From Cyanobacteriota bacterium (GTDB lineage Bacteria > Cyanobacteriota > Cyanobacteriia > Cyanobacteriales > Nostocaceae): a DNA stretch of 15,190 nucleotides. Below the pieces are notes generated by a model. It was not told the DNA's origin and ran no database searches. It worked only from the letters and a program-made list of their open reading frames with translations. The position numbers were made by a program, and so were the translations under genes. Below, in pieces: positions 1 to 14,989 of this stretch; the first letter of the stretch is position 1; each line of letters opens with the position of its first letter. The stretch covers positions 1 to 15,190 of the forward strand of contig JBJOKS010000056.1 of NCBI GenBank assembly GCA_046045965.1. The letters are read 5' to 3'.

Positions 1-1923
1 TTTGGACTGACCAAGAGTTTAAATCACGAATGGGAAACTGTATTTTGTCGTTCCCTTGATATCAGTCCAGATTTAGATGCAGAAACATCGGTAAAATACA
101 TCCTTGCTGAAATTCAAGATCCCAATTTATTAGTTACAGAAGTAGGATATAGCAACAAAGGTAGATTTACTTTAGTTGCCGAACCTACTCCATTACCTAT
201 TATCAAATCCTCAATCCCCATTACCAATGACCAAGTATTTCTAGTCAGTGGTGGTGCAAAAGGAATAACTGCCCAATGTGTGATCAAATTAGCTCAAGAA
301 TATCAATGTAAATTCATTCTTTTAGGTCGTTCGAGTACAGAACCAGAACCAGTTTGGGCTGAGGGTTATGAAAATGAAGCTGAATTGAAACAGCGAATTA
401 TGGAAGATTTTCTCGCCAAAGGAGAAAAACCAACCCCCATCATGGTGCAGAGAAAATATCAAATAATTTCCTCACAACGAGAAATTCAAAATACATTGAA
501 ATCCATTGAAAAAGCAGGAGGAAAAGCTGAATATTTGAGCGTAGATGTTACAGATAGCGGTTTATTAACAGAAAAAATTAGCCCTGTAATTGAACGTTTA
601 GGAACGATAACCGGAATTATTCACGGTGCTGGCAACTTGGCTGATAAACGGATTGAAAAGAAAACAATTCAGGATTTGGAAACAGTTTACGCAGCCAAAG
701 TTAAGGGTTTAGAAAACCTGTTGCAATGTGTACCGCCAAGCCAACTACAACATTTAATATTATTTTCTTCAGTAGTTGGTTTTTATGGAAATGTGGGACA
801 ATCAGATTATGCAATGGCTAACGAAATTCTCAACAAATCAGCCCATTTAATTAAACATAAACACCCCAATTGTCATGTTGTTGCTATTAACTGGGGTCCC
901 TGGGATAGTGGGATGGTATCACCAGAATTAAAGAAAGCCTTTGCAGAAAGAGGAATTGAAACCATCCCCATAGAAATCGGTACACAAATGTTAGTTAATG
1001 AACTAAAAAATACCAATTCAGACACAACACAAGTAGTAATTGGTAGCCCTTTAGTTTATATTCCTCCCACCTTACCGAGTGAATTAAAAACCTATCGCAT
1101 TAAACGTCAATTAACATTAGAATCCAATCCATTTTTACACGATCATATCATCGCCGGTCGTCCAGTTCTTCCTGCTACCTGTGGACTTCTATGGATGGCT
1201 AACGCTTGCGAACAACTATATCCCGGTTTTAAAGCCTTTAGTTGTCCCAATTTCAAAGTTCTGAAAGGCATTGTCTTTGATGAAAATTCAGCAAGTGAAT
1301 ATACTCTGGAAATTCAAGAAGTTGCTAAAATTGAAAACAAAGAAATACATTTTTCTGCTAAAATTAGCAGTAGCACTTCCGAAGGTAAAATCAGATATCA
1401 TTTTAGTACAACTCTGATTTTAAAACGTGAAATTCCCACACCTCCCAACTATGAATTGTTGAACTTAAATCAAGATGAACAATTCCTCACCACAAATAAA
1501 TTACTTTATCAAAATGGGGGAGGTAGCCTATTTCACGGAACTATCTTTCAAGGTGTTAAATCAATCTTAAATACCAGTCCAGGTAAACTCACCATCGAAT
1601 GTAAATTACCGCAACCAACATTACAGCAACAGGGGCAATTTCCCGTTCAGACATTCAACCCTTATATAGCAGATGTGCAGATTCATTCCCTCTGGATTTG
1701 GACACAACACTTTCATCAAATAGGTTGTTTACCTTCAGAAATTCAAACCTTTGAACAATTTGCACCCGTTCCCTTTGGTGAAACATTTTATGTGACTTGT
1801 GAAGTCAAATCCAAGACAGAATCAAACGTAGTTGCTGATGTCATTACTCACAACAAACAAGGACAAATATATAACCGCATGATTGGCGCAAAAGGAACGG
1901 TTTTACCCAAGCAAATAGTATAG
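1..1923 (+). CDS. 5'-truncated PfaA/HglE-HglG-like iterative PKS: end of the KR structural subdomain, KR catalytic domain and C-terminal dehydratase (hot-dog) domain
   Basis: Frame 1 is open from base 1 (FGLTKSLNHEWETVFCRSLDISPDLD...QVFLVSGGAKGITAQC), so the GTG at 280 is internal. The NADPH motif SGGAKG lies at 247-264, upstream of that GTG. KR motifs are HGAGNLAD and GQSDYAMANE (Tyr at 808-810). The DH motif is DHIIAGRPVLP (HxxxGxxxxP, His at 1144-1146). Stop TAG at 1921-1923. Confidence 0.9.
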   Translation, partial: FGLTKSLNHEWETVFCRSLDISPDLDAETSVKYILAEIQDPNLLVTEVGYSNKGRFTLVAEPTPLPIIKSSIPITNDQVFLVSGGAKGITAQCVIKLAQEYQCKFILLGRSSTEPEPVWAEGYENEAELKQRIMEDFLAKGEKPTPIMVQRKYQIISSQREIQNTLKSIEKAGGKAEYLSVDVTDSGLLTEKISPVIERLGTITGIIHGAGNLADKRIEKKTIQDLETVYAAKVKGLENLLQCVPPSQLQHLILFSSVVGFYGNVGQSDYAMANEILNKSAHLIKHKHPNCHVVAINWGPWDSGMVSPELKKAFAERGIETIPIEIGTQMLVNELKNTNSDTTQVVIGSPLVYIPPTLPSELKTYRIKRQLTLESNPFLHDHIIAGRPVLPATCGLLWMANACEQLYPGFKAFSCPNFKVLKGIVFDENSASEYTLEIQEVAKIENKEIHFSAKISSSTSEGKIRYHFSTTLILKREIPTPPNYELLNLNQDEQFLTTNKLLYQNGGGSLFHGTIFQGVKSILNTSPGKLTIECKLPQPTLQQQGQFPVQTFNPYIADVQIHSLWIWTQHFHQIGCLPSEIQTFEQFAPVPFGETFYVTCEVKSKTESNVVADVITHNKQGQIYNRMIGAKGTVLPKQIV

Positions 1924-1932
1924 ATACATCAC

Positions 1933-1980
1933 GCAGAGACGCAGAAATAAAATGTATATTTCCCGTTTCTGAGTCTCTGT
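1933..1980. repeat. Intergenic stem-loop built from the Nostocales CGCAGAG(A/G) octamer repeat family
   Basis: CAGAGACGCAGAAA (1934-1947) pairs with TTTCTGAGTCTCTG (1966-1979) at 13 of 14 positions. Confidence 0.6.
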
Positions 1981-2010
1981 AAATTTCCAAACAATAAATG
2001 GAGAATAATA

Positions 2011-4818
2011 ATGAAAGAATTTGCCCAAAATCAACTTCCAAAAATGGCAATTATAGGCATGAATTGCCTTGTTAGTGGGCTTCAAGAATTAGATAGTTTT
2101 GAACGCAGTATTTACCAAGGTAAACAGGATTTTACACCTCTTACCTATAGTGAAACACCATCATTGCCAATTCTCTTAGCAGAAATTCAACAATTATCAC
2201 CACAACAACAATTAATGTTAAAAGTGGCTGATAATACTCTCAAAAATGCTAAACTGCGGCCAGAAACAAAAATTGCAGTTATTATGGTGAGTAAATTCCA
2301 AATTCACCACCAAAATAAATTAGCAAGTTATATTTCCCGGCTTTGGGATGCCACAAGTCCCGCTTTCGCAGAAGAAAATTCAGTTTTTTCAGCCTTAAAT
2401 TTAGCTCAAAAGCTATTAATAAATAAGCAAGCAGAGGCTGTTTTAGTAGCAGCAATGGACTTTGCTAAACAAGAAAATCACTGCACAGGTGTACATAGCC
2501 TCAGTTATGACAAAAACACTGATGGTACTTTAGCCGGAGAAGGTGCAGCGGCTGTAGTATTGCAACTTCAAGATATAGCCAAACAAGAAAATCATTGCAT
2601 ATATGCAGTAATTGATGCTGTAAGTGTGGTGCAAAATTCTCCACACCAACCAGAAGCCGTCACCCAAGCTTGTCAAACAGCTTTTGCACTGGCAGATATT
2701 GAAGCTCAAGATATTGGCTATTTGGAAGTTTATGCTAGTGGAATTCCCCAAGAAGATGCAGCAGAAATTCAAGGTTTAATTACAGCTTATAGAACTGGAG
2801 AAACAAATTTAAGTTGTGCTTTAGGTAGCGTCAAAGCTAACATTGGTAACACTCATACTGCATCAGGAATTATTAGCTTAATTAAAACAGCACTTTGTTT
2901 ATATCACCGCTATATTCCCGCAGTTCCCCAGTGGACTGGTGTAAAAAACCCCGATATTTGGTGTGCTAGTCCCTTTTATGTAGCCACAGAATCTAAACCC
3001 TGGTTTTTAGAGTCAGGTGCAAATAAAAGAATAGCTGCTATTAATAGCATAGAAGCCGATGGTAGTTATGTACACTTAATTTTGTCAGAAGAAACCAGTC
3101 AAATAGAACGCAGCAGCAAATATTTAGAACAAACGCCTTATCATTTATTTAGTATAGCTGCCAAAAATCAATCTTCACTTCTGGACCAAATTATTACACT
3201 GCAAAAAAATCTGGAAAATTCTCCTTCTCTATCTCAACTTGCCAGCCAAACATTTAGAGAATTTCAAAAATATCAAATTCCTAACCATCAAAATGCAAAT
3301 TACACCATAGCAATTTTGGCACGTAATCAACAAGAATTAACACGGGAAATAGACCGCGCAATTCAAGGTGTTAACATTGCTTTTGAGACAGGAAAAGATT
3401 GGCAAACTCCTATGGGTAGCTATTTTACAACCAACCCACAAGGAAAAAAAGGTAAAATTGCATTTGTTTATCCCGGTTCTTTCACATCTTATATTGGTAT
3501 AGGTCGCAATCTCTTCCGACTATTTCCCAAAATTTATGATGACCCAGTAATCAAGAACGTTTATGAAAGAGTTGCTAACATCGAAAAAATCATTTATCCC
3601 CGCAGCATCAATAAACTTGCAAAAAGACAACTAGAAGTCCTAGAACAGCAATTAATAGATGATCCAGTAACAATGCTAGAATCAGAAGTTGGCATTGCTG
3701 GACTTATGACTGCAATTCTCAAAAACTATTTTCAAATCCAATCTCAATCTGCTTTTGGTTATAGTCTTGGTGAAACTAGCATGATGTTAGCCCAAGGTAT
3801 TTGGACAAGCTTTAAAAATACCAGTGATTACTTAAACTCATCTCCTCTATTTAAAACCCAACTAGCTGGCCCAAAAAATGCAGTTCGTCAAGCTTGGGGA
3901 CTACCTTTAAATATCAATGATCAGGAATTTTGGAGCAACTACATTGTTATATGTCCAGTCTCCCAAGTTAAGGAAGCAATTAAACAGGAAGACCGCGTTT
4001 ATATCCCTTTAATTAATACACCCGAAGAAGTAGTAATTGCCGGAGAAACACAAGCTTGTCAAAGAGTAATTAAAAAACTCAAATGTGATGCTTTTCCCAC
4101 ATCAATAAATCATGTAATTCATTGTCAACCAATGCACTCCGAGTACAATGAACTCTTGAAAATCAACACCTTAGAGATTAAAGATATACCTGAATCAACT
4201 TTTTACTCTGCTGCAAATTACGAACCAATTACAATCGATAGTCAGACTATAGGAAAGAACATTGCTCAAAGTCTCTGTCAACAACTTGATTTCCCTCGTT
4301 TAATTAACCGTGTCTACGATGACAACATTAGAATATTTATTGAAGTAGGAGTTGGTAGCAACTGTTCGCGATGGATAAGTTCAACCCTCAAAGAAAAAGA
4401 ACATCTTGCTGTATCTGTAAATAGAAGGGGAGTAGATGATCATACTTCAATTATTAGAGCATTAGCGAAACTCGTCAGCCATCAAGTTGAATTAGATTTA
4501 TCACCTTTGTATTCTCTTTCTGCGATAACTACACAGCCACAAATCAAAGTAGAAACTAATCAAAATTTCAAAAATCTACCTTTGATTTCTCTAGAAGATG
4601 CACTTGCTCAAAAGCCAAATAAAATCTTAAAATCTATTCCCCCTCATCCTTTTAATTCTCAATATCAAAAATTGAGTGATAACAATGCACTAATGACTAA
4701 AGCCCACAGCTTTTTATTAAAGTCTCGCCAAGCATCATTACATCAAATAAATTTCCTGATTCAACAAAAAATAGACATCTACAAAAAGATAGTTGAGCAA
4801 GGAAAAAGAATTAAATAG
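2011..4818 (+). CDS. hglC: HglC/PfaB-like protein: degenerate ketosynthase-fold chain-length-factor domain plus acyltransferase
   Basis: KS-fold remnants are MAIIGM, EENS (at the catalytic Cys position), GEGAAAVVL, YLEVYASG and LGSVKANIGNT, with no catalytic Cys-His-His triad. AT motifs are FVYPGS, GYSLGE (Ser585 at 3763-3765), HVIHC and FIEVGVG. A GGAG RBS lies at 2000-2003. Confidence 0.8.
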   Translation: MKEFAQNQLPKMAIIGMNCLVSGLQELDSFERSIYQGKQDFTPLTYSETPSLPILLAEIQQLSPQQQLMLKVADNTLKNAKLRPETKIAVIMVSKFQIHHQNKLASYISRLWDATSPAFAEENSVFSALNLAQKLLINKQAEAVLVAAMDFAKQENHCTGVHSLSYDKNTDGTLAGEGAAAVVLQLQDIAKQENHCIYAVIDAVSVVQNSPHQPEAVTQACQTAFALADIEAQDIGYLEVYASGIPQEDAAEIQGLITAYRTGETNLSCALGSVKANIGNTHTASGIISLIKTALCLYHRYIPAVPQWTGVKNPDIWCASPFYVATESKPWFLESGANKRIAAINSIEADGSYVHLILSEETSQIERSSKYLEQTPYHLFSIAAKNQSSLLDQIITLQKNLENSPSLSQLASQTFREFQKYQIPNHQNANYTIAILARNQQELTREIDRAIQGVNIAFETGKDWQTPMGSYFTTNPQGKKGKIAFVYPGSFTSYIGIGRNLFRLFPKIYDDPVIKNVYERVANIEKIIYPRSINKLAKRQLEVLEQQLIDDPVTMLESEVGIAGLMTAILKNYFQIQSQSAFGYSLGETSMMLAQGIWTSFKNTSDYLNSSPLFKTQLAGPKNAVRQAWGLPLNINDQEFWSNYIVICPVSQVKEAIKQEDRVYIPLINTPEEVVIAGETQACQRVIKKLKCDAFPTSINHVIHCQPMHSEYNELLKINTLEIKDIPESTFYSAANYEPITIDSQTIGKNIAQSLCQQLDFPRLINRVYDDNIRIFIEVGVGSNCSRWISSTLKEKEHLAVSVNRRGVDDHTSIIRALAKLVSHQVELDLSPLYSLSAITTQPQIKVETNQNFKNLPLISLEDALAQKPNKILKSIPPHPFNSQYQKLSDNNALMTKAHSFLLKSRQASLHQINFLIQQKIDIYKKIVEQGKRIK

Positions 4819-4837
4819 CCTGTATATTAAGGTATTT

Positions 4838-4860
4838 GTGGGGTGGGCATCTTGCCTGCC
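4838..4860. repeat. REP-like GC-rich hairpin GTGGGGTGGGCATCTTGCCTGCC
   Basis: 8-bp stem (GGTGGGCA/TGCCTGCC, two G:U pairs) with a 3-nt loop. It resembles a common cyanobacterial intergenic palindrome. Confidence 0.55.
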
Positions 4861-4892
4861 AAAATAACTCAAATTAAAAGAGATTTACTAAA

Positions 4893-6548
4893 ATGTTCAA
4901 CACAGAAAATAGCTTGAATCAAGACAATCATCTCCAGTTGTCCAACTTATTTATCAACCATCATCATACTTGGCAAGGTGATTTTAATAATGTTGCTTTT
5001 GATGCCGAAAAAATAAAATTAAAACTGAGGAATTTAGAAAAACCCTGTTATATAGTTAGAAATGAAGGGATAATTGGCATCACAAACGAAGGTAGTTTAT
5101 CTCATGTCAATAATGGTAAAACAGCCCAGATGGAAATGTTAATGGCTGTTCCTCCCTTAGCAATTCAACAATTAGGTAATGCAGATTTTCTCAATTATTA
5201 CGGCGTAAAATATGCCTATATGACTGGAGCAATGGCGCAGGGAATAGCATCAGAAGAAATGGTAATTGCACTAGGCAAAGAAAGAATTTTAAGTGTCTTT
5301 GGTGCAGGAGGTTTATCTCCTTCCCGTGTCGAGATAGCTATTAACAAAATTCAGCAAGCCTTAGATCAAAAACCCTACGCTTTTAACTTACTTCATAGTC
5401 CCAGTGAACCAGCCATTGAACGCCGTAGCATTGATTTATATCTCAAATATCAAGTCAGAATCATTGAAGCCTCGGCATTTTTAGATTTAAGTGACAACAT
5501 AGTTTATTATCGAGCCTCCGGCTTAAGTTTAAATTCAGCCAATCAAATCCAAATCAAAAATAAAGTCATTGCTAAAGTTTCCCGCCGCGAAGTTGCCATT
5601 AAATTTCTCCAACCTGCGCCTACAAAAATTCTCAAACAATTAGTTGAACAAGGTTTAATTACTGAATTACAAGCCACTCTTGCCAGCAAAATTCCTATGG
5701 CTGATGATATCACCGTAGAAGCAGATTCTGGAGGTCATACAGATAATCGTCCCCTCATTTGTTTATTACCTTCCATCTTAGAATTACGAGATGAAATTCA
5801 AAATAAATATAGGTATGAAAACCCCGTCAGAATTGGCGTAGCCGGCGGAATTTCTACACCCAAATCAGCCTTAGCTGCCTTTATCATGGGTGCTGCTTAT
5901 GTTGTCACAGGCTCCATTAATCAATCCTGTATTGAAGCCGGAACTTCTGAATACACCAAAGCATTATTAGCTCAAGCAGAAATGGCTGATGTGATGATGG
6001 CTCCCGCAGCAGATATGTTTGAAATGGGTGTAAAATTGCAAGTTCTTAAACGTGGCACACTCTTTCCTCTCCGCGCTCAAAAATTATATGAATTATACAA
6101 AAGTTACAACTCAATTGAAGAAATTCCCCCAGCCGAAAAAGAGAAATTAGAAAAGCAAATCTTGAAAAAAACTGTGCAAGAAGTTTGGCAAGAAACAGCT
6201 AATTATTTATCCCAACGCAACCCTGATAAATTAACTAAAGCAGCAAGTAATACTCAACTAAAAATGGCTCTGATTTTTCGCTGGTATTTAGGACTTTCTT
6301 CTCGGTGGTCTAACATGGGAGAAAAAGGTCGAGAAATTGACTATCAAATTTGGTGTGGACCTGCAATGGGTAGCTTTAATGATTGGGTACGAGGTTCATA
6401 TTTAGCTGAACCAAAAAATCGCCAAGTCGTAGAAATTGCTAACCACATTATGACAGGAGCAACATTTTTATATCGCATCCAAAACTTAAAAATGCAAGGA
6501 TTACAAATTGCAGATGAATACGGTCAATATCTTCCACAAAAATTATGA
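4893..6548 (+). CDS. pfaD: PfaD/HglA-family FMN-dependent trans-acting enoyl reductase
   Basis: Motifs GAMAQGIAS, EASAF, IAKVSRREVA, EADSGGHTDNRP, MAPAADMFEMGVKLQVLKRG and DYQIWCGPAMG; 551 aa; follows the HglC-like gene as hglA does. Confidence 0.95.
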   Translation: MFNTENSLNQDNHLQLSNLFINHHHTWQGDFNNVAFDAEKIKLKLRNLEKPCYIVRNEGIIGITNEGSLSHVNNGKTAQMEMLMAVPPLAIQQLGNADFLNYYGVKYAYMTGAMAQGIASEEMVIALGKERILSVFGAGGLSPSRVEIAINKIQQALDQKPYAFNLLHSPSEPAIERRSIDLYLKYQVRIIEASAFLDLSDNIVYYRASGLSLNSANQIQIKNKVIAKVSRREVAIKFLQPAPTKILKQLVEQGLITELQATLASKIPMADDITVEADSGGHTDNRPLICLLPSILELRDEIQNKYRYENPVRIGVAGGISTPKSALAAFIMGAAYVVTGSINQSCIEAGTSEYTKALLAQAEMADVMMAPAADMFEMGVKLQVLKRGTLFPLRAQKLYELYKSYNSIEEIPPAEKEKLEKQILKKTVQEVWQETANYLSQRNPDKLTKAASNTQLKMALIFRWYLGLSSRWSNMGEKGREIDYQIWCGPAMGSFNDWVRGSYLAEPKNRQVVEIANHIMTGATFLYRIQNLKMQGLQIADEYGQYLPQKL

Positions 6549-7879
6549 CCATGCCAGACAACAGAGAATTAAGTAGTCTGGAAGCAGCAATGGAAATTCT
6601 CAATAGCCGTGCTAAAACCTGGAATTTAGTTACTATTAGTCGCATTAACGGCAACCTCCAAGAAGCAGTTCTCAGACAGTCTTTAGATATTATCCAATAT
6701 CGCCATCCTCAACTCAATTCGCACATAATTTATTTGAGAAAACGTTTCTATTTTCAAACCGCAGGTACAGAAAGAATACCTTTGCAAATTGTTAATAATT
6801 TAGAAGAGGAAGAATGGCAAGATGTAGTTAATCAAGAAATGAATCAGGCAATAGATAGTAGTAAATCTCTGATGAGAGTTGTACTCATTACTATCCAAGA
6901 TCAGCCAAAAATTAATTATCTAATTTCCATCTTGCACCACGCAATTTCTGATGGTTTATCAAGCATTCAACTTCACTCGGAAATCTTAACTTATTATCAA
7001 AAACTTACATCGGGTGACACCATTCAAGAAGTTACTACCTTGGAACAACTACCACCCATTGAAAAACTACTACCCAAACATATACAAGGTTGGAAAGGAA
7101 ATCTCAGTAGCTTTTTATTGTTATTAAAACTGGGTTTTCACAAACTTTACAACCAACCACAAACATTAGGTTTTGAGAAATATGCACCCATTAATAAACG
7201 GAGTTGTGAAATTATTCATAAACAGATTTTATCAGATGTAACTGAAAATTTTGTTGCTCGATGTCGGCTAGAAAATACCACAGTAAATAGTGCTTTATGC
7301 GCCTTACTCATGTTAACAGTAGCTAGAAAAATTATCAAAGATAATCAAAAATATGTCCGAGTAAATTGCCTATCATACCTGGATTTACGCAGACGCTTAC
7401 AACCAGCAATTAATGAAGAAAACCTAGCTGTTTTAGCTACTTCTATGATGGGTTTTCACACCATAAAAACAAATACATCCTTGTGGGAACTAGCCAGGAA
7501 AGTCAAACCAAATTTAGACTTTGGTATTAAGCATGGTGATCTTTTCAATATGGTATTAATTGCCAAACACCTGATCAATTTTTGTTTTATTTTTCCCAAA
7601 CAAGTAGCTGCTACAGTTTCAGTATCTAACATTGGCAAAGTCAACATTCCCACAACTTATGGAGATTTGGAACTAGAAGAAATCAGTTTTGCCGGTTCTC
7701 ATTCTTTGTATGCAGGTATGTTTGTCATTCATACTGCCACTTTTCAAGGAAAAATGTTGTTAAATTTTGTATTTTCTCAACCTTCAATTAGTCGGGAGAC
7801 AATGGAAGAACTGGTAAACCAAGTTATCTCTTACATCTTTAATTTATCTTCAGATACCTTAGAAATTAGAGGTGCATAA
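6545..7879 (+). CDS. Stand-alone condensation-domain / PapA5-like (alcohol acyltransferase-type) acyltransferase
   Basis: HHAISDG (HHxxxDG, 6935-6955), RHPQL, TTVNSAL, DLRRRL and VSNIG motifs typical of the CAT/condensation-fold acyltransferases. 444 aa with no adenylation domain. ATGA overlap with the pfaD stop. Confidence 0.85.
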   Translation: MTMPDNRELSSLEAAMEILNSRAKTWNLVTISRINGNLQEAVLRQSLDIIQYRHPQLNSHIIYLRKRFYFQTAGTERIPLQIVNNLEEEEWQDVVNQEMNQAIDSSKSLMRVVLITIQDQPKINYLISILHHAISDGLSSIQLHSEILTYYQKLTSGDTIQEVTTLEQLPPIEKLLPKHIQGWKGNLSSFLLLLKLGFHKLYNQPQTLGFEKYAPINKRSCEIIHKQILSDVTENFVARCRLENTTVNSALCALLMLTVARKIIKDNQKYVRVNCLSYLDLRRRLQPAINEENLAVLATSMMGFHTIKTNTSLWELARKVKPNLDFGIKHGDLFNMVLIAKHLINFCFIFPKQVAATVSVSNIGKVNIPTTYGDLELEEISFAGSHSLYAGMFVIHTATFQGKMLLNFVFSQPSISRETMEELVNQVISYIFNLSSDTLEIRGA

Positions 7880-8185
7880 ATGGACGAAAACCTTGCCAAC
7901 TCACCTATGAAAAAGGCTGCTACTACCGCAGATATTCAAGCTTGGCTAGTTACTAACATTTCCTATATATTGGGAGTTAACCCAGAGGAAATAGATATTC
8001 GAGAACCGTTAGATAGCTATGGTTTAGATTCATCACAAGCTATGATTCTTGCAAGTAAAGCCGAGAAATTTCTGGGTTTTAAATTATCTCTAATTCATTT
8101 GTGGTATTATCCCACAATTGAAGAACTAGCACAACGGTTAGCTGAAGAATTAGAAAATTCTGAATCAGAAATTTTGCAGATATAA
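7880..8185 (+). CDS. Free-standing acyl carrier protein resembling the HglB/HetM N-terminal ACP
   Basis: IQAWLV...LGVNPEEIDIREPLDSYGLDSS (phosphopantetheine Ser51 at 8030-8032)...YPTIEELAQRL. The ATG directly follows the TAA of the acyltransferase, with an AGAGGT RBS at 7868-7873. Confidence 0.92.
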   Translation: MDENLANSPMKKAATTADIQAWLVTNISYILGVNPEEIDIREPLDSYGLDSSQAMILASKAEKFLGFKLSLIHLWYYPTIEELAQRLAEELENSESEILQI

Positions 8186-8319
8186 GCAATAAACAATTTG
8201 TAAAGATTCAGAATACAGAATAGTCAGCAGTGATAATTGCTTGAAAAATTGGCAAATATTCCAACTACTGAATTCTGACAACAATTTTAATATTTTCAAG
8301 TTTTTCCTCCTCTAAGACT

Positions 8320-8370
8320 GACACTTCGCACGAATGGAGGAAACATCATTCAGCGGAGTGTCTTCTTTTC
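8320..8370 (+). terminator. Candidate intrinsic terminator after the ACP gene
   Basis: GACACTTCGC (8320-8329) pairs with GCGGAGTGTC (8353-8362), with an inner GAATG/CATTC stem, followed by the pyrimidine tract TTCTTTTCTCTATTCTTT. Confidence 0.45.
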
Positions 8371-8381
8371 TCTATTCTTTG

Positions 8382-8494
8382 TATAGCAATCCTAAATAAT
8401 ATATGAACACCTCTTTTTCTCTACCTCTGCGCTCTCTGCGTCTGGAGCGGTTCGTTTTAAAAACTCCGTTCATAAATCAAATAGGATTGCTATA
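8382..8494. mobile_element. MITE-like miniature element (113 bp)
   Basis: 27-bp terminal inverted repeats, TATAGCAATCCTAAATAATATATGAAC (8382-8408) versus the reverse complement of 8468-8494: 23 of 27 match and the outer 13 are perfect. It has TA ends, internal CTCTGCG repeats and no ORF. Confidence 0.75.
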
Positions 8495-8521
8495 GTTCGT
8501 TAAAAACTGGGAGATTTAGTC

Positions 8522-10417
8522 ATGAACGCATCCGAAATTTTAGCGAAACTCACTCAACAAGGTGTGGAATTCTGGGTTGAAAATAGTAAACTGAATATTC
8601 GTTCTCCTAAAGGTGTAATTACCTCAGAAATACAAGCACAAATAGCCACATATAAAGGAGATATATTGGCATTATTACAGGAAATGAATATCGCTACAAA
8701 ATCTGCATCTGAACCTCTCAGTCAAGGAATAAGTTTACAAACAATTGGTAAATTAATTGGTGGTTTTGTCGGTGAATCACCTATAGGATATCAGCCACCA
8801 ATTATTAACCCGAAAATGATGGCTCAAAATCTCAGTATTACATTTAGACCTTTACCTCATGGATATGATCATCAAACTATTATTAAGTTTCGCCAAGAAT
8901 TAGCTATTAAGTTAAAAAACTTTGGCGTTACTGTCATACCTTGGCAGGAAGCAACCACAGAAATTTTCTATGATATTAAAATTCCTCTACTTAATTGGAA
9001 TCGCTCTTTAAAAATGAAGGGAGTTCGAGCAGAAATTGATGCAGTAATAGATGTGGAACGACCTAATTCATGGTTGAGAAAATTAGGAATTTTCTTTGCT
9101 GAAAATTTTTATAGTTTATCTTATCCCTGGCTCATAAATCAGCAAAAAATGTCAGTTGTCCAAATTGCTAAACTAAGTAGTTGGGCAGAAGATCATGCAG
9201 CTAAATATGTTGAAGATCCAACAAATACTCAAGTCATCATTATTGGTGAAATCGATCATGAATTTATAAATCCCTTAATCAAATATCAAGACAAGATTAG
9301 TATTGGTATCAATACACTCATTAAAACATTCTCAGAAATTGTCATTGGCGTATCTAGTGAGCAAATTTCTATTCTCAATATGAATCTATCAGATTCTATT
9401 TTTTCTAGAACAGAAATTGATGATTTTATTTCCAAATCACTAATTCCTAAAGTTTTTGTTCCTATCGCTCCCCTATTAATGAATAGATTTGAAATAGGAG
9501 AGTATAATCCTCATCTATCTAGCTATGCTCATCAATTAGTCAAACTAGGTCGAGAACTAGCCTCCACTGGTCTATTTCCATCAGGTTTTAAACTTGATGA
9601 AGTTATTAAAAGAAAGTCCCACAGAGATATTGTCAATGTCATCGTCAATGGTAGAACAGGAGTCTCTTATGGTTTTGTCGCTTATGTCGAACCTCCTTAC
9701 TATCTAGGAAAACAAGAAATAACTGCTAATGAGTGGGAAAACTTATTACCTGTTCCTGGATTTAGTAGTAGTGAAATTCGTAAAAATGAAGCAGGTAGAC
9801 ATTATATTAAAATCCTCATTGCCGGAGAGTATGTATTTAAGCAAATCCCTGATATTTGGTTACTTAGTTCTCGTTCTGGCTCAAATAAAACAGACTTAAA
9901 TCTTGAGCAAGATATCATTCGTATCGGCTTAAAAAATAATTTACATCTGCAATTACCACTAGGAAATCAGTCGCCTAAATTAGATGTAAAACCTTCTTAT
10001 GATATCTATGTCATGCTGGCAATTAGTCTAGCCGCTGCTTTATATACACCAGAATTAATTGAAAATGGTGCGCCAATTGTTCACTTTCATGGCTATCCTG
10101 CTTATGATTGGTTTAAAGAAAATGAATATTGCGTTGGTGTTGATAATCCTTCTGTACCATGTGGAACTTATGAATCAGGTGTGTTTAATTTTCTAGGTCT
10201 TTCTAACTTAGATAATCAACAAACAAAAAATGTCAAATTAGTTAGTTTAATAGAACCAGATCATGGCACAAATTTTATCGCTCGTGATATGGACTATCTA
10301 ATTGATAGGTTAAAAAATGGATGTTTAGCCGAACAAATTGAACTCGGTGGACAACATTTTGCTTCTCTTAAAGCTAATCTAAGTAATAGAAGTAAATTCA
10401 TAATTCATAATTCATAA
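8522..10417 (+). CDS. Uncharacterised 631-aa protein: TubC-like N-terminal docking domain, unknown middle region and putative class II aldolase/adducin-like C-terminal domain
   Basis: Residues 1-54 (EILAKLTQQGVEFWVENSKLNIRSPKGVITSEIQAQIATYKGDILALL) fit the TubC-N docking pattern. The C-terminal half carries, in order, SRSGSNK, KPSYD, IVHFHG, PCGTYE and EPDHG. A GGGAGA RBS lies at 8509-8514. Confidence 0.75.
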   Translation: MNASEILAKLTQQGVEFWVENSKLNIRSPKGVITSEIQAQIATYKGDILALLQEMNIATKSASEPLSQGISLQTIGKLIGGFVGESPIGYQPPIINPKMMAQNLSITFRPLPHGYDHQTIIKFRQELAIKLKNFGVTVIPWQEATTEIFYDIKIPLLNWNRSLKMKGVRAEIDAVIDVERPNSWLRKLGIFFAENFYSLSYPWLINQQKMSVVQIAKLSSWAEDHAAKYVEDPTNTQVIIIGEIDHEFINPLIKYQDKISIGINTLIKTFSEIVIGVSSEQISILNMNLSDSIFSRTEIDDFISKSLIPKVFVPIAPLLMNRFEIGEYNPHLSSYAHQLVKLGRELASTGLFPSGFKLDEVIKRKSHRDIVNVIVNGRTGVSYGFVAYVEPPYYLGKQEITANEWENLLPVPGFSSSEIRKNEAGRHYIKILIAGEYVFKQIPDIWLLSSRSGSNKTDLNLEQDIIRIGLKNNLHLQLPLGNQSPKLDVKPSYDIYVMLAISLAAALYTPELIENGAPIVHFHGYPAYDWFKENEYCVGVDNPSVPCGTYESGVFNFLGLSNLDNQQTKNVKLVSLIEPDHGTNFIARDMDYLIDRLKNGCLAEQIELGGQHFASLKANLSNRSKFIIHNS

Positions 10418-10422
10418 TTCAT
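10395..10422. repeat. Heptamer tandem repeat (AATTCAT)x4, STRR type, overlapping the stop codon
   Basis: Four exact copies; they encode the terminal KFIIHNS* of the 631-aa ORF. Confidence 0.9.
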
Positions 10423-10498
10423 AGGGAATAGGTGGTAGGTGACAGGTAGAAAGTGATCCTCCCCATCTCCCTAGCTTCGCGGAAGTCAAAAGTCAAAA

Positions 10499-10681
10499 GT
10501 TTTAAAAGTTTATGGCGATTAGAAAGATGCCTCCGGCACGCTTCGCGAACGCTACTACACAAACTAAGTCCACCTCCGTGGACTAACGAAAAATTGAGAG
10601 TTTGAAACCCATGAAGATGGGTTTTGTCTGTGTAGCCGCGACTTATAGTCGCCAAGGCTTTTCTTTTCAAACAACCTCTTA
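10499..10681. mobile_element. Composite MITE-like palindromic repeat with a nested 21-nt insert
   Basis: Arms TGGCGATTAGAAA...CTACACAAAC and GTCTGTGTAGCCGCGACTTATAGTCGCCA are inverted relative to each other. Internal hairpins are at 10567-10584, 10605-10624 and 10638-10652. The right end CTTTTCAAACAACCTCTTA has only a partial left partner, GTTTTAAAAG (10499-10508). Confidence 0.6.
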
Positions 10682-10753
10682 GAATGGTTGGTTTATTTAC
10701 GCTGTACTTTACTAGCTTCTTCATGTTTACAGATTGAGTAATTTGTTTAACTT

Positions 10754-11761
10754 ATGAACACCAATTCCAAAACATTACTGATTACGGGAATAGATAATTT
10801 TATTGGTTTACGTGCTGCTGAATTATCTTTAGAGCGAGGAATGAAAGTTCGTGGTTTACAAACTTCTGTAAAAACCAAAAGCACTACTAATTTAGATGCT
10901 GATTTAGTGATAGGTAACATAACAGATTTGGCAATTACCAAACAAGCTTGTCAGGGAGTAGATATTATTTTTCATACAGAACAACTGGCTGAAGAAACCG
11001 GCGACATCAAAAAATTTCGAGAAATAAATGTTGGTGGTACACTAAATATAGCTCAAGCTGCCAAAAATGCTGGTGTAAAAATTTTTGTCCATCTTTCTAG
11101 CGTGCTAGTTTATGGCTTTAACTATCCTCATCAAGTTACTGAATCAGACGCACTTTCTGGAGAAAATAACCCCTATTGTCAGACGAAAATAGAAGCCGAA
11201 TCTGCGCTTTTAAAATTGAATTCACCGCCAGATTTTAATATTATTATTATCCGCGCTGGTGATGTTTACGGACCAGGTAGTATTCCTTGGGTAGTACGTC
11301 CACTTTTATTAATGCGTCAAAATTTCTTTGCCTATGCCAATGATGGTAAAGGTGTAAGTAATCATCTCTATATAGATAACCTCATTGATGCTATATTTTT
11401 GGCAATTGAAAAAGAACCATCTGAAGAAATATCTGGAGAAATATTTAATATCACAGATGGTCAAGAAACTTCCTGGAAAGAGTATTTCACAAATTTAGCT
11501 GCAATTGAAGGTTTAGATGGTTTCATGTCTCTACCTAAAGATGAAATGAAATTATTATTGCAAGTGCGTCGTCAAGGACAGAAACTGTTGCGAAAAAAAG
11601 CCGATATTCTGCCAGAATCTCTAGATTTTATCACTCGTCCTTATGCCTATTCCATCGCCAAAGCTAAAACTATGTTGGGTTATCAGCCAAAAATTGATTT
11701 GTCCGAGGGAATGCGTCGTACTCATGAATGGTTGAAAAAAACCGATATCCAAGAATTGTAG
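10754..11761 (+). CDS. NAD-dependent epimerase/dehydratase family protein (extended SDR)
   Basis: LLITGIDNFIG (variant of TGxxGxxG), INVGGT, FVHLSSVLVYG, PYCQTK (YxxxK, Y141/K145), IRAGDVYGPG and AKTMLGYQP; 335 aa. Confidence 0.9.
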   Translation: MNTNSKTLLITGIDNFIGLRAAELSLERGMKVRGLQTSVKTKSTTNLDADLVIGNITDLAITKQACQGVDIIFHTEQLAEETGDIKKFREINVGGTLNIAQAAKNAGVKIFVHLSSVLVYGFNYPHQVTESDALSGENNPYCQTKIEAESALLKLNSPPDFNIIIIRAGDVYGPGSIPWVVRPLLLMRQNFFAYANDGKGVSNHLYIDNLIDAIFLAIEKEPSEEISGEIFNITDGQETSWKEYFTNLAAIEGLDGFMSLPKDEMKLLLQVRRQGQKLLRKKADILPESLDFITRPYAYSIAKAKTMLGYQPKIDLSEGMRRTHEWLKKTDIQEL

Positions 11762-11779
11762 GCATTCAGGAGTCAGGAG

Positions 11780-11799
11780 GGGCGAACGGCCGTTCGCCC
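11780..11799. repeat. Perfect 20-bp REP-like palindrome GGGCGAACGGCCGTTCGCCC within AGGAGTC-type heptamers
   Basis: Self-complementary 20-mer followed by GTACA, flanked by CAGGAGTCAGGA and AGAGTCAGAA. Confidence 0.8.
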
Positions 11800-12030
11800 G
11801 TACAAGAGTCAGAACATTTGAAAAATGGTTAGATGATTAAGTGTAAGTTTTAGTGAGTTTTAGTGAGTTTAGGCTTTTCGCCTCAGTGTAAATCACTGCG
11901 CTACGTGGCGTAAACTCTAGAATAGTTAAATTAACTACATTTACGCCATAAAGCAAGAATTATGGCAGGATGGAAACAAGCTCGTGCAACAAGAAGTCCA
12001 AAAGCTGGTTTTCACTCTGAGGAACTTCAT

Positions 12031-12207: not shown

Positions 12208-12486
12208 ATGACTCCAGACTACTCAGAAACTTACATCAATCATCCAACGTGGGGTTTACTATATAGGATCTGTATGGTTGATGATAACCAGGATCTGTTT
12301 ACTACACTTTATGCCCAACGCTTATTTTTTTTGGTAACAAATGACGTTAAAGGTATTAAATTTCAGTCTATCGGTCGGACTGAAGCGAGAATGATGCTGG
12401 AAAATCGTTTACGTACTTTGCGCCGCAGTGGCAAGCCTCAGGAGTACGATCAGCTTCAAAGTGTTTTCCAACGCACATTCCAATGA
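12208..12486 (+). CDS. pipX: PII-interacting protein X, NtcA coactivator
   Basis: ETYINHPTWGLLY, LFTTLYAQRLFFLV and ENRLRTLRR; 92 aa; directly upstream of pipY. Confidence 0.97.
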   Translation: MTPDYSETYINHPTWGLLYRICMVDDNQDLFTTLYAQRLFFLVTNDVKGIKFQSIGRTEARMMLENRLRTLRRSGKPQEYDQLQSVFQRTFQ

Positions 12487-13187
12487 CAAGTTCGATTTGT
12501 GAACGTATTGCTACCATTCGCGCCTCTCTTTCCCCTTCAGTGCGGTTAATTGCTGTTAGTAAGCAAATACCAACCGAACTGATGCGGGAAGCATACAGCG
12601 CGGGTATTCGTGATTTTGGTGAAAGTCGCATCCAAGAAGCTGCCAGTAAACAAACTCAGTTGCAAGACTTGCCGGATATTACTTGGCACTTCATTGGCAC
12701 TTTACAAAGCAACAAAGCCAAAAAAGCTCTAGAATTATTTGATTGGATTCACTCTGTAGATAATCTACATATAGCCCAGCGTCTGGATACCCTGGCGCAA
12801 CAGCTGGGAGTGAGTCCCTTGGTTTGCTTACAAGTCAAAATTCTCCCCGATCCTAGCAAGTCTGGCTGGAGCATACCCCAACTATTAGCTGACTTGGCAG
12901 CACTTGACCAATGCAAAAATTTGCAAATTCAAGGTTTGATGACAATTCCCCCTCGTGGCTTGGATGAGAGGGAAATTTTGAATGTCTTTAATCATACCCA
13001 TAAACTAGCCCAAGAAATTGGATCACAAAAATGGGGAAATATCAAAATGCAGCATCTATCTATGGGTATGTCTGGAGATTATCAATTAGCAATACAAGCA
13101 GGTGCAACAATGGTCAGATTAGGGACTATTTTGTTTGGGCATCGCTCCCCCATTTCCCACATCTCACCCGATGTAACTGTATCTTAA
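12483..13187 (+). CDS. pipY: PLP-binding homeostasis protein (YggS/PLPBP family)
   Basis: LIAVSK (PLP lysine), FGESRIQE, WHFIGTLQSNK, IHSVD, GLMTIPP, LSMGMSGDY and GATMVRLGT. ATGA overlap with pipX. Confidence 0.96.
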   Translation: MTSSICERIATIRASLSPSVRLIAVSKQIPTELMREAYSAGIRDFGESRIQEAASKQTQLQDLPDITWHFIGTLQSNKAKKALELFDWIHSVDNLHIAQRLDTLAQQLGVSPLVCLQVKILPDPSKSGWSIPQLLADLAALDQCKNLQIQGLMTIPPRGLDEREILNVFNHTHKLAQEIGSQKWGNIKMQHLSMGMSGDYQLAIQAGATMVRLGTILFGHRSPISHISPDVTVS

Positions 13188-13499
13188 AAAACTCAGCACT
13201 GATAACCAGGTCAGTGCCTGTTGCTTAAAAATTGGTAGCCAGATATAGACTTGACAAATGTAATTACTAAGACCAAATTAGAGGTAAAGAACTTTTCATT
13301 ACCCAAACTTTAGGATATAATTTTGACTCATTGTTATGTCCATATAAAGTTCTTTCTAGAACAGTATTTTCTTTATGAAAACCTGTACTAGAGGACACAA
13401 ACAGCAATAAAATTGCTCAAGGCAGCAGCTACTATCTATACTGGCTACCAAAATTTACAGCCGGATCAATTAAGGTAATTTCCACTGGGAGCGTAGACA

Positions 13500-14093
13500 A
13501 TGAACAATATATTTTCCAAACTTAGGGATTTTGTGGGTTTGAATGAGCAAGTAGAATACGAATACTACGAAGAGGAGCAAGATAACGATAGCTACCAAAA
13601 TCTGTATCAACAAGAAAATCCTCAACCTGCTCCACAAGAAACCCCTGCTCCTAATCGACGTTGGCGTGAACCCTCCTCTACAATGGGAGAAGAAGTAGCA
13701 GCAACAGGATCAAAGCCTATGAGTAATGTGATTGGTATGCCAGGCGCAATTAATGGAATTTCTGAAGTTTTAGTCCTCGAACCCCGCACTTTTGAAGAAA
13801 TGCCCCAGGCAATTCAAGCATTACGTGAGCGCAAGTCCGTAGTATTGAACTTAACAATCATGGACCCAGATCAGGCTCAACGGGCTGTAGATTTTGTGGC
13901 GGGTGGTACTTATGCTCTAGATGGACATCAAGAGCGTATTGGCGAAAGTATCTTTTTGTTTACACCCAGCTGTGTGCAAGTCAGCACCCAAGGCGGTTTT
14001 TTACATGAAGTACCCCAACCAGCAGCACGTCCCGTTCGTCCTACAGGTACAACTCCCACTTGGGGTAGTGAACCCAACCGGATGGCACAATAA
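13500..14093 (+). CDS. sepF: Cell division protein SepF (Cdv2/YlmF)
   Basis: N-terminal amphipathic helix [10 protein letters not shown], an acidic linker, and C-terminal [25 protein letters not shown]...[11 protein letters not shown]...IFLFTP. GGGAG RBS upstream. Confidence 0.97.
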
Positions 14094-14103
14094 TGAAGTT
14101 AAA

Positions 14104-14180
14104 TTAGTCGTTTGTCCCTGGTGCTGATGCTGACAAATGACTAATGACCAATAACTAAATGACTATTAACTAAATGACTA
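14104..14180. repeat. AATGACT/AAATGAC-type STRR array with an upstream inverted copy
   Basis: TGACAAATGACTAATGACCAATAACTAAATGACTATTAACTAAATGACTA at 14131-14180. TTAGTCGTTTGTC (14104-14116) can pair with GACAAATGACTAA (14132-14144). Confidence 0.75.
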
Positions 14181-14989
14181 TTAAATTTGGTTTAATTGGT
14201 GGCGGGGTAATGGGAGAAGCTCTCTTATCCCGCCTTATTGCGCGAGGAATGTATCAGGGTTCTGAAGTCATAGTCAGTGAACCCCAAGAGTCTCGCCGGA
14301 GTTTCTTGCAGCAGCAATATGGGGTAACTGTAACGACGGATAATTGTCTGGTGTTATCTCAGACTCAAGAAGCTGTAATGTTAGCGGTGAAGCCCCAGGT
14401 ATTTAGTGCGATCGCTCAAGAATTAGCAGATATATTACCTATAGAACATTCACCTCTAATTATTTCTATTTTGGCAGGTGTGCCTTTAAAACCTCTAGAA
14501 GCAGCTTTTCCCCAATTGCCTGTTGTTCGCGCTATGCCTAATACTCCTGCTACAGTAGGCGCTGGAATAACAGCTATTTGTTTAGGTGCTTATACTCAGC
14601 CTAGCCATCAGCAAACCGCACAGGAAATTTTTTCCGCTGTGGGGGAAGTGGTAGAAGTTCCAGAATCTTTAATGGATGCAGTGACAGGTTTATCTGGTAG
14701 TGGTCCTGCCTATGTGGCGTTGATGATCGAAGCTTTATCTGATGGGGGTGTGGCTGCGGGTTTACCCAGAGCAGTGGCTAAACAGTTAGCTTTGCATACA
14801 GTTTTGGGAACGGCTAAACTCATAGAAGAAACAAAAATCCACCCCGCAGAATTGAAAGATAGAGTTACCAGTCCTGGGGGGACAACTATTGCAGGAGTGA
14901 GCGAGTTGGAGAAGGCTGGTTTTCGTTCTGCTTTAATTGAAGCGGTGAAAGCTGCTGCTCATCGTTCTCAGGAGTTGGGGAAAGGGTGA
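14174..14989 (+). CDS. proC: Pyrroline-5-carboxylate reductase
   Basis: GLIGGGVMG, LAVKPQ, RAMPNTP, TGLSGSGPAY, LKDRVTSPGGTTIAG; 271 aa. Confidence 0.98.
   Translation: MTIKFGLIGGGVMGEALLSRLIARGMYQGSEVIVSEPQESRRSFLQQQYGVTVTTDNCLVLSQTQEAVMLAVKPQVFSAIAQELADILPIEHSPLIISILAGVPLKPLEAAFPQLPVVRAMPNTPATVGAGITAICLGAYTQPSHQQTAQEIFSAVGEVVEVPESLMDAVTGLSGSGPAYVALMIEALSDGGVAAGLPRAVAKQLALHTVLGTAKLIEETKIHPAELKDRVTSPGGTTIAGVSELEKAGFRSALIEAVKAAAHRSQELGKG
14408..14415. repeat. HIP1 octamer GCGATCGC
   Basis: Exact match inside proC; the only one I found in the window. Confidence 0.9.

Follow-up and report, generated by a model that had tools for sequence, protein, structure and literature searches.

An hgl-like island of a Nostocaceae cyanobacterium in which an NglG-like protein is the probable chain-release enzyme

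Contig JBJOKS010000056.1 (C56) of the Nostocaceae assembly GCA_046045965.1 is 15,190 nt long and was analysed in its entirety (hereafter the window). It carries seven intact, co-oriented open reading frames (ORFs) of a lipid-type polyketide synthase (PKS) locus (Table 1), which encode the ketoreductase–dehydratase (KR-DH) end of the synthase, a chain-length factor–acyltransferase (CLF-AT), an enoyl reductase (ER), an HHxxxDG acyltransferase, a stand-alone acyl carrier protein (ACP), a 631-aa protein with a docking domain, and a short-chain dehydrogenase/reductase (SDR). A preceding sequence-only reading had recognised these ORFs and their families, and Pfam and NCBIfam scans of the window proteins bore it out on both counts; it had also placed the ketosynthase (KS) and ACP part of the PKS outside the window, and this is where we found it. 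The first 127 bases of the window repeat, without a mismatch, the end of contig C51 (minus strand), on which the same frame encodes a KS with C-H-H intact, an acyltransferase (AT) domain with GHSxG, and two ACPs. Because of this overlap and the shared reading frame, KS-AT-ACP-ACP on C51 and KR-DH in the window are one fused PfaA-like HglE/G protein of ~2,250-2,280 aa. We consider the chances about even that the product of the locus is an odd-chain alkane-1,2-diol lipid that is exported and probably carries an ester, and that the 631-aa protein releases its chain in place of HglB. This reading draws on the observed gene content, a separate canonical island, the protein fold, conserved metal-site residues, the pairing with a tailed ACP, and a natural swap with HglB.

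Table 1 Features of the window (C56; identities are to homologs on contig C2 of the same genome).
Feature	Position	Strand	Basis
KR-DH, C-terminal part of fused PfaA-like HglE/G iterative PKS	1-1923, 5'-open	+	Pfam KR, PKS_DH_N, PS-DH; TIGR02813
HglC-like chain-length factor + acyltransferase	2011-4818	+	TIGR02816 over cut-off; 44% to C2 HglC
HglA/PfaD-type enoyl reductase	4893-6548	+	TIGR02814 662 bits vs cut-off 449; 71% to C2 HglA
PapA5-like HHxxxDG acyltransferase	6545-7879	+	Pfam PapA_C 71 bits; HHAISDG at residue 131
Stand-alone ACP (Ser51), acidic C-terminal tail	7880-8185	+	53.5% to HglB ACP on C2
631-aa NglG-like protein	8522-10417	+	TubC_N at residues 5-54; remainder without Pfam/NCBIfam match
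HgdA/All5345-like extended SDR, YCQTK motif	10754-11761	+	72% to C2 hgdA
Intergenic dispersed repeat	8366-8515		~20 copies in genome
Intergenic dispersed repeat	10480-10690		~20 copies in genome
Intergenic dispersed repeat	11762-11820		~20 copies in genome
pipX-pipY-sepF-proC	12208-14989		usual cyanobacterial cluster

The locus almost certainly belongs to a type that has already been catalogued. Perez Gallego et al. 2025 (PMC11804610) described a smaller 'hgl-like island', with hgdCB and hglEAFGCA in five ORFs, as widespread and of unknown product, and found that no particular heterocyst glycolipids (HGs) go with having one. Divergent from the PKS gene on C51 are genes for an HlyD-type protein (53% identical to the genome's hgdB product), an FtsX-type protein (64% to that of hgdC) and a DevA-like ABC-ATPase. 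The genome is nifH-positive, and a complete canonical island on contig C2 comprises hglT, GT2 genes, hgdA, hgdC, hgdB, hglE, G, D, C, A, B and hetN; the window locus is not the only hgl locus of this genome. The absence of hglD, the reductase domain, hetN and hetI from the window was confirmed and extends to C51, and the genome's hglD, hglB and hetN sit in the C2 island at about 96-122 kb. The lack of hetI says little, since no match to a 4'-phosphopantetheinyl transferase (PPTase; PF01648) was found in the whole assembly (92% complete), many PKS genes notwithstanding; this is probably an assembly gap. The KR-DH part is 56% identical to C2 HglG, and alignment of the CLF-AT with HglC and HglD showed that its KS catalytic Cys is absent, that its N-terminal part is shorter than that of HglC, and that its AT motif is GYSLGE. 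By KS/CLF logic, the missing HglD suggests a different, perhaps shorter, chain.

A paralogous, non-canonical cluster had been proposed from the window alone; the C2 island, synteny and an ER phylogeny support that proposal. The phylogeny, a single-gene tree of 80 rows estimated with a quick IQ-TREE run and rooted at the midpoint, placed the window ER in an hglD-less clade (36 rows, SH-like approximate likelihood ratio support of 97) and the genome's own HglA in the canonical clade (34 rows, 99). Most second-island rows were chosen for carrying the 631-aa gene, and the tree therefore gives no frequency for it. An unselected count placed the family in 59 of 121 Nostocaceae genomes: 46 of the 54 with at least two ER matches, 12 of the 65 with one, and one of the two with none, these being plain counts over genomes that are kin and not independent. 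Across the order, a full-length homolog was present in 28 of 301 genomes. In relatives, the ACP and 631-aa genes keep company with the PKS genes, and related genomes have syntenic copies of all seven window ORFs, catalytic motifs included, at 80-94% identity.

The sequence-only reading had assigned the genes after the ER to other tailoring functions. The docking-domain protein is most likely not one of these but an NglG-like chain-release enzyme with a class II aldolase fold. An AlphaFold model of the 631-aa protein from 63 sequences (mean predicted local distance difference test score, pLDDT, 82.7) comprises three parts: a β-hairpin docking domain (~1-56), a CoaB-like α/β domain (~97-316), and a class II aldolase-fold domain (~329-624). 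Class II aldolases were the top Foldseek and VIA-align matches (1gt7 with Z 13.4, root-mean-square deviation (rmsd) 3.6 and 189 aligned residues), and the best Foldseek match was 1pvt (E 2e-5). Residues D494, H521, H523, C547, E578 and H581 are invariant in the 63 aligned sequences, motifs of the PSYD, HFHG, PCGT and EPDHG type are present in 92 of 93 homologs, and the His/Asp set persists in relatives at ~25% identity. H521, H523 and H581 are the presumed equivalents of the aldolase metal ligands and D494 that of the catalytic acid; the conserved R451, S452, G453 and S492 would presumably suit a phosphorylated co-substrate. Sequence searches of the PDB with the 631-aa protein matched the docking domain alone (AerJ, TubC and an enacyloxin condensation protein), and the Protein Atlas search matched a single low-score TubC_N cluster. 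Folded alone, the middle domain (pLDDT 89) best matched CoaB (Z 10.0, rmsd 4.2, 148 aligned), with receiver and B12-binding folds at Z 7-8 and no Foldseek match at 1e-3; its CoaB-like identity is a weak lead from the model. Structural matches to the model included no reductase fold of the type that binds NAD(P)H.

Relatives of this protein also occur in other settings. A full-length homolog with docking domain is present in Pseudomonas huaxiensis (P0243), and another relative is fused to a thioesterase (P0248). A docking-less family of ~500-550 aa has the same metal-site motifs (metagenome loci L133-L212; P0469-P0585); the next gene downstream encodes a seven-transmembrane histidine kinase in 57 of 79 loci, and PlsC-type acyltransferases (26), SDRs (8) and AMP-binding proteins (5) are also found. 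In bacteria whose lipid metabolism is reduced, this family possibly makes lipids or signals. Diol lipids are known from Thermomicrobium, Thermus and Roseiflexus; a role of docking-less proteins as diol synthases in these genera was unsupported, as the named matches among the best 120 of 355 were all from Patescibacteria.

The genes that accompany the 631-aa family point to action on a carrier-bound chain. We surveyed 94 loci (two pairs seem to be duplicates), in which the family is associated with pfa-type synthases (66), with fatty acyl-AMP ligase (FAAL) and modular PKS genes (21), or with an unclear context (7). An ACP is encoded upstream of the enzyme or fused to it in 93 of these: it is the first co-oriented upstream ORF in 85 and the second in 4, and among the remaining five it was detected by tblastn in three (L055, L231 and the frameshifted L096), is fused in L057, and was not found in L214. 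An acidic-hydrophobic C-terminal tail is present on 88 of the 90 called ACPs upstream of the family, and in FAAL/PKS loci it occurs on 8/8 terminal versus 0/14 starter stand-alone ACPs. Acidic ACP tails are known partners of β-hairpin docking domains, and we predict from sequence that the ACP tail docks on that domain of the 631-aa protein. The pathway is reduced to a minimum at L057:2243-6097, where FAAL, ACP and aldolase-fold enzyme are fused, the docking domain is gone, and a sulfotransferase gene comes next; this form and L233 lack any KS, which argues that the enzyme acts on plain acyl-ACP. Genes 3' of the family encode SDRs, monogalactosyldiacylglycerol-synthase-like and other glycosyltransferases, methyl- and sulfotransferases, and PapA5-like acyltransferases, all of which suit an alcohol product.

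Some of these loci show further variation. Several hgl-like islands (L086, L087, L088, L090, L092 and L237) have 4-5 additional genes inserted after the ER and before the ACP, one of them for a 405-410-aa homolog of a 470-aa protein that occupies the halogenase position of FAAL clusters, and several of them have two or three PapA5-like copies 3' of the enzyme. The 470-aa protein, which follows the starter ACP, had no Pfam, NCBIfam or PDB match, and its label as a CylC halogenase is position-based and unconfirmed. Three CylC clusters that contain a nitronate monooxygenase have been listed as orphans (PMC8406957).

The release role is further supported by the replacement of HglB itself in canonical islands. 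Heterocyst glycolipid formation is considered to require HglB. A search of 121 Nostocaceae genomes with a threshold of 1e-120 gave no HglB-reductase match in 12, and in seven of these (G314, G315, G331, G335, G337, G363 and G380) a canonical-clade hglA is followed by a tailed ACP, a member of the 631-aa family, and an SDR only ~30% like HetN. The same arrangement follows canonical hglA in G381, whose sole reductase is PKS-embedded (52%), such that the HglB slot of the canonical island is taken by ACP, enzyme and SDR in eight Nostocaceae genomes, an observation that is new here; the other five of the 12 (G302, G326, G340, G354 and G387) lie outside this count. Thioester-reductase matches over the cut-off in the replacement genomes lie in ORFs of at least 1,050 aa, and G380 and G337 have none. 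G335, G380 and G337 are closed or nearly closed (1-2 contigs, 99-100% complete), and their islands include hglT (76-77%), hgdA, hgdC, hgdB, hglD and hglC; in G314, G363 and G381 the island was traced less far than hglT, and in G315 and G331 from hglA onward only, with the canonical assignment made by the tree and 81-83% identity. The genes nifH and hetR are present in the five replacement genomes tested, including G335, G380 and G337. The replacement predicts unusual heterocyst glycolipids in these genomes. Among the replacement loci (L073-L084), the ER tree separates the HglA of G331 from those of the other seven genomes, while the enzyme copies form one clade.

A product class for such enzymes is suggested by the nostochlorosides, which according to Glasser et al. 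2024 (PMC10849952) are built from palmitate and bear a glycosylated 1,2-diol on a C21 chain. In the supplementary information of that study, NglG, a protein with docking and aldolase domains, is proposed to terminate an assembly line that lacks a thioesterase or thioester reductase (TE/TER) and to convert a C20 chain into a C21 vicinal diol; the study also mentions several hundred NglG homologs in PKS clusters without known termination domains, and describes an H-to-Q change in the last ngl KS as inactivating. In six loci (L054, L213, L216, L223, L225 and L226), a last PKS module with an NglF-like C-Q-H ketosynthase is followed by a homolog of the 631-aa protein (55-58%). The other TubC_N protein of Nostoc punctiforme, Npun_R1287, is 68.5% identical to the 631-aa protein. 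By a spreadsheet of PMC10849952, Npun_R1284-F1299 is laid out like the present island, as PKS, PKS, PfaD, hypothetical protein, ferredoxin, ACP, condensation-domain protein, TubC_N protein and glycosyltransferase, with divergent HlyD/DevC/DevA genes, and it has low-level expression (RNA-seq baseMean about 50-1,500). N. punctiforme also contains an odd-carbon chlorinated lipid, C31H59O2Cl, that is not made by ngl and persists when ngl is deleted (PMC10849952); it is a candidate product of this island, and no more. We rejected N. punctiforme pks1 as the same cluster, as it corresponds to RS10485-10525 and makes nostoclides and nostovalerolactone (PMC9324945).

We propose the following scheme. 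The fused PfaA-like PKS, CLF-AT and ER would build a reduced acyl chain, which would move onto the stand-alone ACP, whose acidic tail would dock on the β-hairpin domain of the 631-aa protein. At the metal centre (H521, H523, H581 and D494), a small ketose phosphate, for instance dihydroxyacetone phosphate, would then be turned into an enediolate; attack of the enediolate on the thioester and cleavage of the adduct would yield a hydroxyketone or hydroxyaldehyde with a chain longer by one carbon. Reduction of this ketol or aldehyde to the 1,2-diol would fall to an SDR encoded in the cluster or acting in trans, a PapA5-like enzyme would acylate a hydroxyl, and the divergent HgdB/HgdC/DevA transporter would export the lipid. 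The parts of this scheme differ in strength: the 631-aa protein is very probably the chain-release enzyme, an odd-chain 1,2-diol or its ketone is somewhat more likely than not to be the product, and exactly this carbon-adding chemistry falls slightly short of an even chance.

This interpretation must be weighed against several observations. Odd-chain HG27 and HG29 are reported only in traces (0.03-0.5%), and also in A. variabilis, which lacks an hgl-like island (PMC11804610). The 631-aa protein had no match to Pfam Aldolase_II at E 0.1. The sequence of NglG (Npun_F3362) was not found among 30 clusters looked up, so that the kinship of the two proteins rests on architecture and context, and the terminating role of NglG is itself put forward as a hypothesis in PMC10849952. 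Thioester reductase and 631-aa enzyme occur together in 7 of 66 pfa-type loci, the second island L106 ends in ACP-TER instead, and G406 has HglB although its enzyme copy falls in the 'HglB-slot' clade. The SDR, judged by sequence, is a paralog of HgdA/All5345 (through the C2 copy) and not of HetN, and its role as a ketone reductase is the weakest step of the mechanism, since HgdA, the closest relative of the SDR to have been characterized, has been reported to be a UDP-galactose 4-epimerase in vitro (PMC6692557), and since many loci (L033-L037, L039, L072, L111 and L112) have no such gene downstream; we regard it as a candidate.

Structure-match rows show that the aldolase fold also covers decarboxylases and Fe oxygenases, which likewise counts against a carbon-adding enzyme and leads to the main alternative, which we consider unlikely and in which the 631-aa protein removes a carbon by metal- and O2-dependent hydroxylation and decarboxylation of a β-ketoacyl-ACP to a hydroxyketone. 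This route, too, would end in an odd-chain 1,2-diol, with a terminal carbon derived from malonate. The decarboxylases and non-haem Fe oxygenases of this fold family (2z7b, YgbL, POD, NovR and TqaM), the AT domain retained by the last ngl-type module and the thioesterase fusion of P0248 would fit this chemistry, as would the start at C16 and end at C21 of nostochloroside, which also equal three extensions minus one carbon. The KS-less FAAL-ACP-enzyme forms, however, cannot make a β-keto chain, the KS change described as inactivating affects the very last KS of ngl-type loci, and the conserved R451, S452, G453 and S492 would presumably favor a phosphorylated co-substrate.

It is improbable that release falls instead to the PapA5-like acyltransferase, which would transfer the chain onto an alcohol to give an even-chain wax-type ester, with the 631-aa protein supplying or modifying the acceptor. 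The acyltransferase gene overlaps the ER stop codon, HHxxxDG is intact in 54 of 61 homologs, and the gene is present in 46 of 66 pfa-type loci, at times in two or three copies; it is nevertheless missing from the other 20, from 21/21 FAAL/PKS loci and from the HglB-less canonical islands, all settings in which the ACP and the 631-aa family persist, and the docking domain sits on the 631-aa protein and not on the acyltransferase. For this enzyme, which matches PDB 8s6l (E 1e-22), we predict from its family that it esterifies the released alcohol; as no amine donor is encoded in the cluster, an amide is less likely than an ester linkage.

A similarly improbable alternative, slightly the weaker of the two, holds that the 631-aa protein is equivalent to HglB and releases an even-chain alcohol, so that an HG-like aglycone or 1,3-diol results and HglB-less strains make standard HGs. 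Although the family occupies the HglB slot of canonical islands that retain hglT, and C24 1,3-diol HG analogs are known from strains with divergent islands (PMC11804610), the model matched no reductase fold of the NAD(P)H-binding kind, PMC11804610 associated no HGs with possession of an hgl-like island, and the sole known product of an NglG-containing cluster has an odd chain with a 1,2-diol (PMC10849952). That the island is a decaying or silent duplicate with no lipid product in this strain is very improbable: relatives have degenerate copies (such as L105 and the split enzyme gene of L247) and this assembly has no PPTase match, but the seven ORFs are intact with motifs and high identity retained, and the N. 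punctiforme counterpart has non-zero RNA-seq counts.

Degenerate copies in relatives take several forms: L105 (G330) has a truncated PKS and no enzyme gene, acyltransferase and enzyme are split in L247 (G364), and the ACP is frameshifted in L096 (G382). In the window, the intergenic repeats may break co-transcription of the ACP, the 631-aa enzyme and the SDR. One freshwater metatranscriptome, in which 9% of words matched and contigs were patchy and of mixed organisms, provided no evidence either way on expression or co-transcription. Between PKS and exporter, and divergent from the PKS, lies a 107-aa gene (G000:C51:6160-6483, L248) that has no Pfam match and is 88-99% conserved in the closest relatives; it is possibly a regulator. 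The genes pipX, pipY, sepF and proC 3' of position 11761 are not cluster members, and the island lies directly 5' of this group in many close relatives.

More broadly, we tentatively suggest, with somewhat less confidence than for the chemistry at this locus, that NglG-like proteins form an uncharacterized class of polyketide release enzymes, in which a metal centre of the class II aldolase type converts acyl-ACP into a one-carbon-longer 1,2-diol, that they end most hgl-like islands, and that they have replaced HglB in the main heterocyst island of several nitrogen-fixing genera of Nostocaceae. If so, the heterocyst envelopes of those species would consist of odd-chain 1,2-diol glycosides, which fall outside current HG biomarker screens. 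The island type is already known (PMC11804610), and a supplement had offered a first glimpse of the enzyme family (PMC10849952); our literature search, which most subscription papers and the PNAS SI Appendix lay outside, found no account of HglB replacement, of the function of the cassette, or of a link between the islands and NglG. The product of the hgl-like island was an open question in the 2025 PNAS survey (PMC11804610), as is the termination chemistry of the nostochlorosides, and linking the two gives one specific prediction, an odd-chain 1,2-diol lipid. Near-complete nif-positive genomes with an unrelated cassette in place of HglB predict either a second route to HGs or different lipids, which bears on the use of HGs as sediment biomarkers, and oleochemical engineering would profit from an enzyme with a vicinal diol as its release product from acyl-ACP.

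Comparison with known systems places the locus closest to the hgl-like island of PMC11804610: it likewise has hgdC, hgdB, hglE, hglG, hglC and hglA homologs in five ORFs, is additional to a larger canonical island, and is separate from it in phylogeny. The examined parts of the main text and spreadsheet supplement of that paper, as distinct from its SI Appendix, make no mention of an acyltransferase, ACP, aldolase-fold protein or SDR downstream. Compared by description (PMC10849952), NglG of N. punctiforme ATCC 29133 (ngl/pks3) has the same architecture as the 631-aa protein, with docking at 2-55 and an aldolase-like part at ~437-606, and both follow the last ACP of a line without TE/TER and precede an SDR; ngl, however, is a FAAL/halogenase/modular PKS cluster with sugar genes, whereas the donor in the window is an iterative pfa-type synthase accompanied by an acyltransferase. 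With the class II aldolase/adducin superfamily (RhaD, FucA and AraD) the 631-aa protein shares the fold (Z 11-13) and the conserved His/His/His and acidic set, but it is only 10-17% identical, lacks a Pfam match, has large insertions and extra CoaB-like and docking domains, and is predicted to act on a carrier-bound thioester. The acyltransferase shares the HHxxxDG motif, PapA_C domain and PKS context of PapA5-type enzymes and scores far under the NCBIfam cut-off (NF006787, 70 vs 396 bits). Unlike polyunsaturated fatty acid synthases (pfa types A/B), the locus lacks FabA-like dehydratase/isomerase domains, with Pfam showing a KS-like domain and AT only in 2011-4818, and it differs from the Type G secondary lipid synthase (Shulse and Allen 2011, PMC3098273) in having the 107-aa gene and the transporter upstream on C51. 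Finally, the canonical hgl island (Type F; Anabaena PCC 7120 alr5351-all5359) and the locus have in common the PfaA-like KS-AT-ACP2-KR-DH, CLF-AT, ER, HglB-type ACP, HgdA-type SDR and HgdBC exporter; window and C51 together lack hglD, a thioester reductase, hetN and hglT or another glycosyltransferase gene, and add instead the PapA5-like acyltransferase and the aldolase-fold protein.

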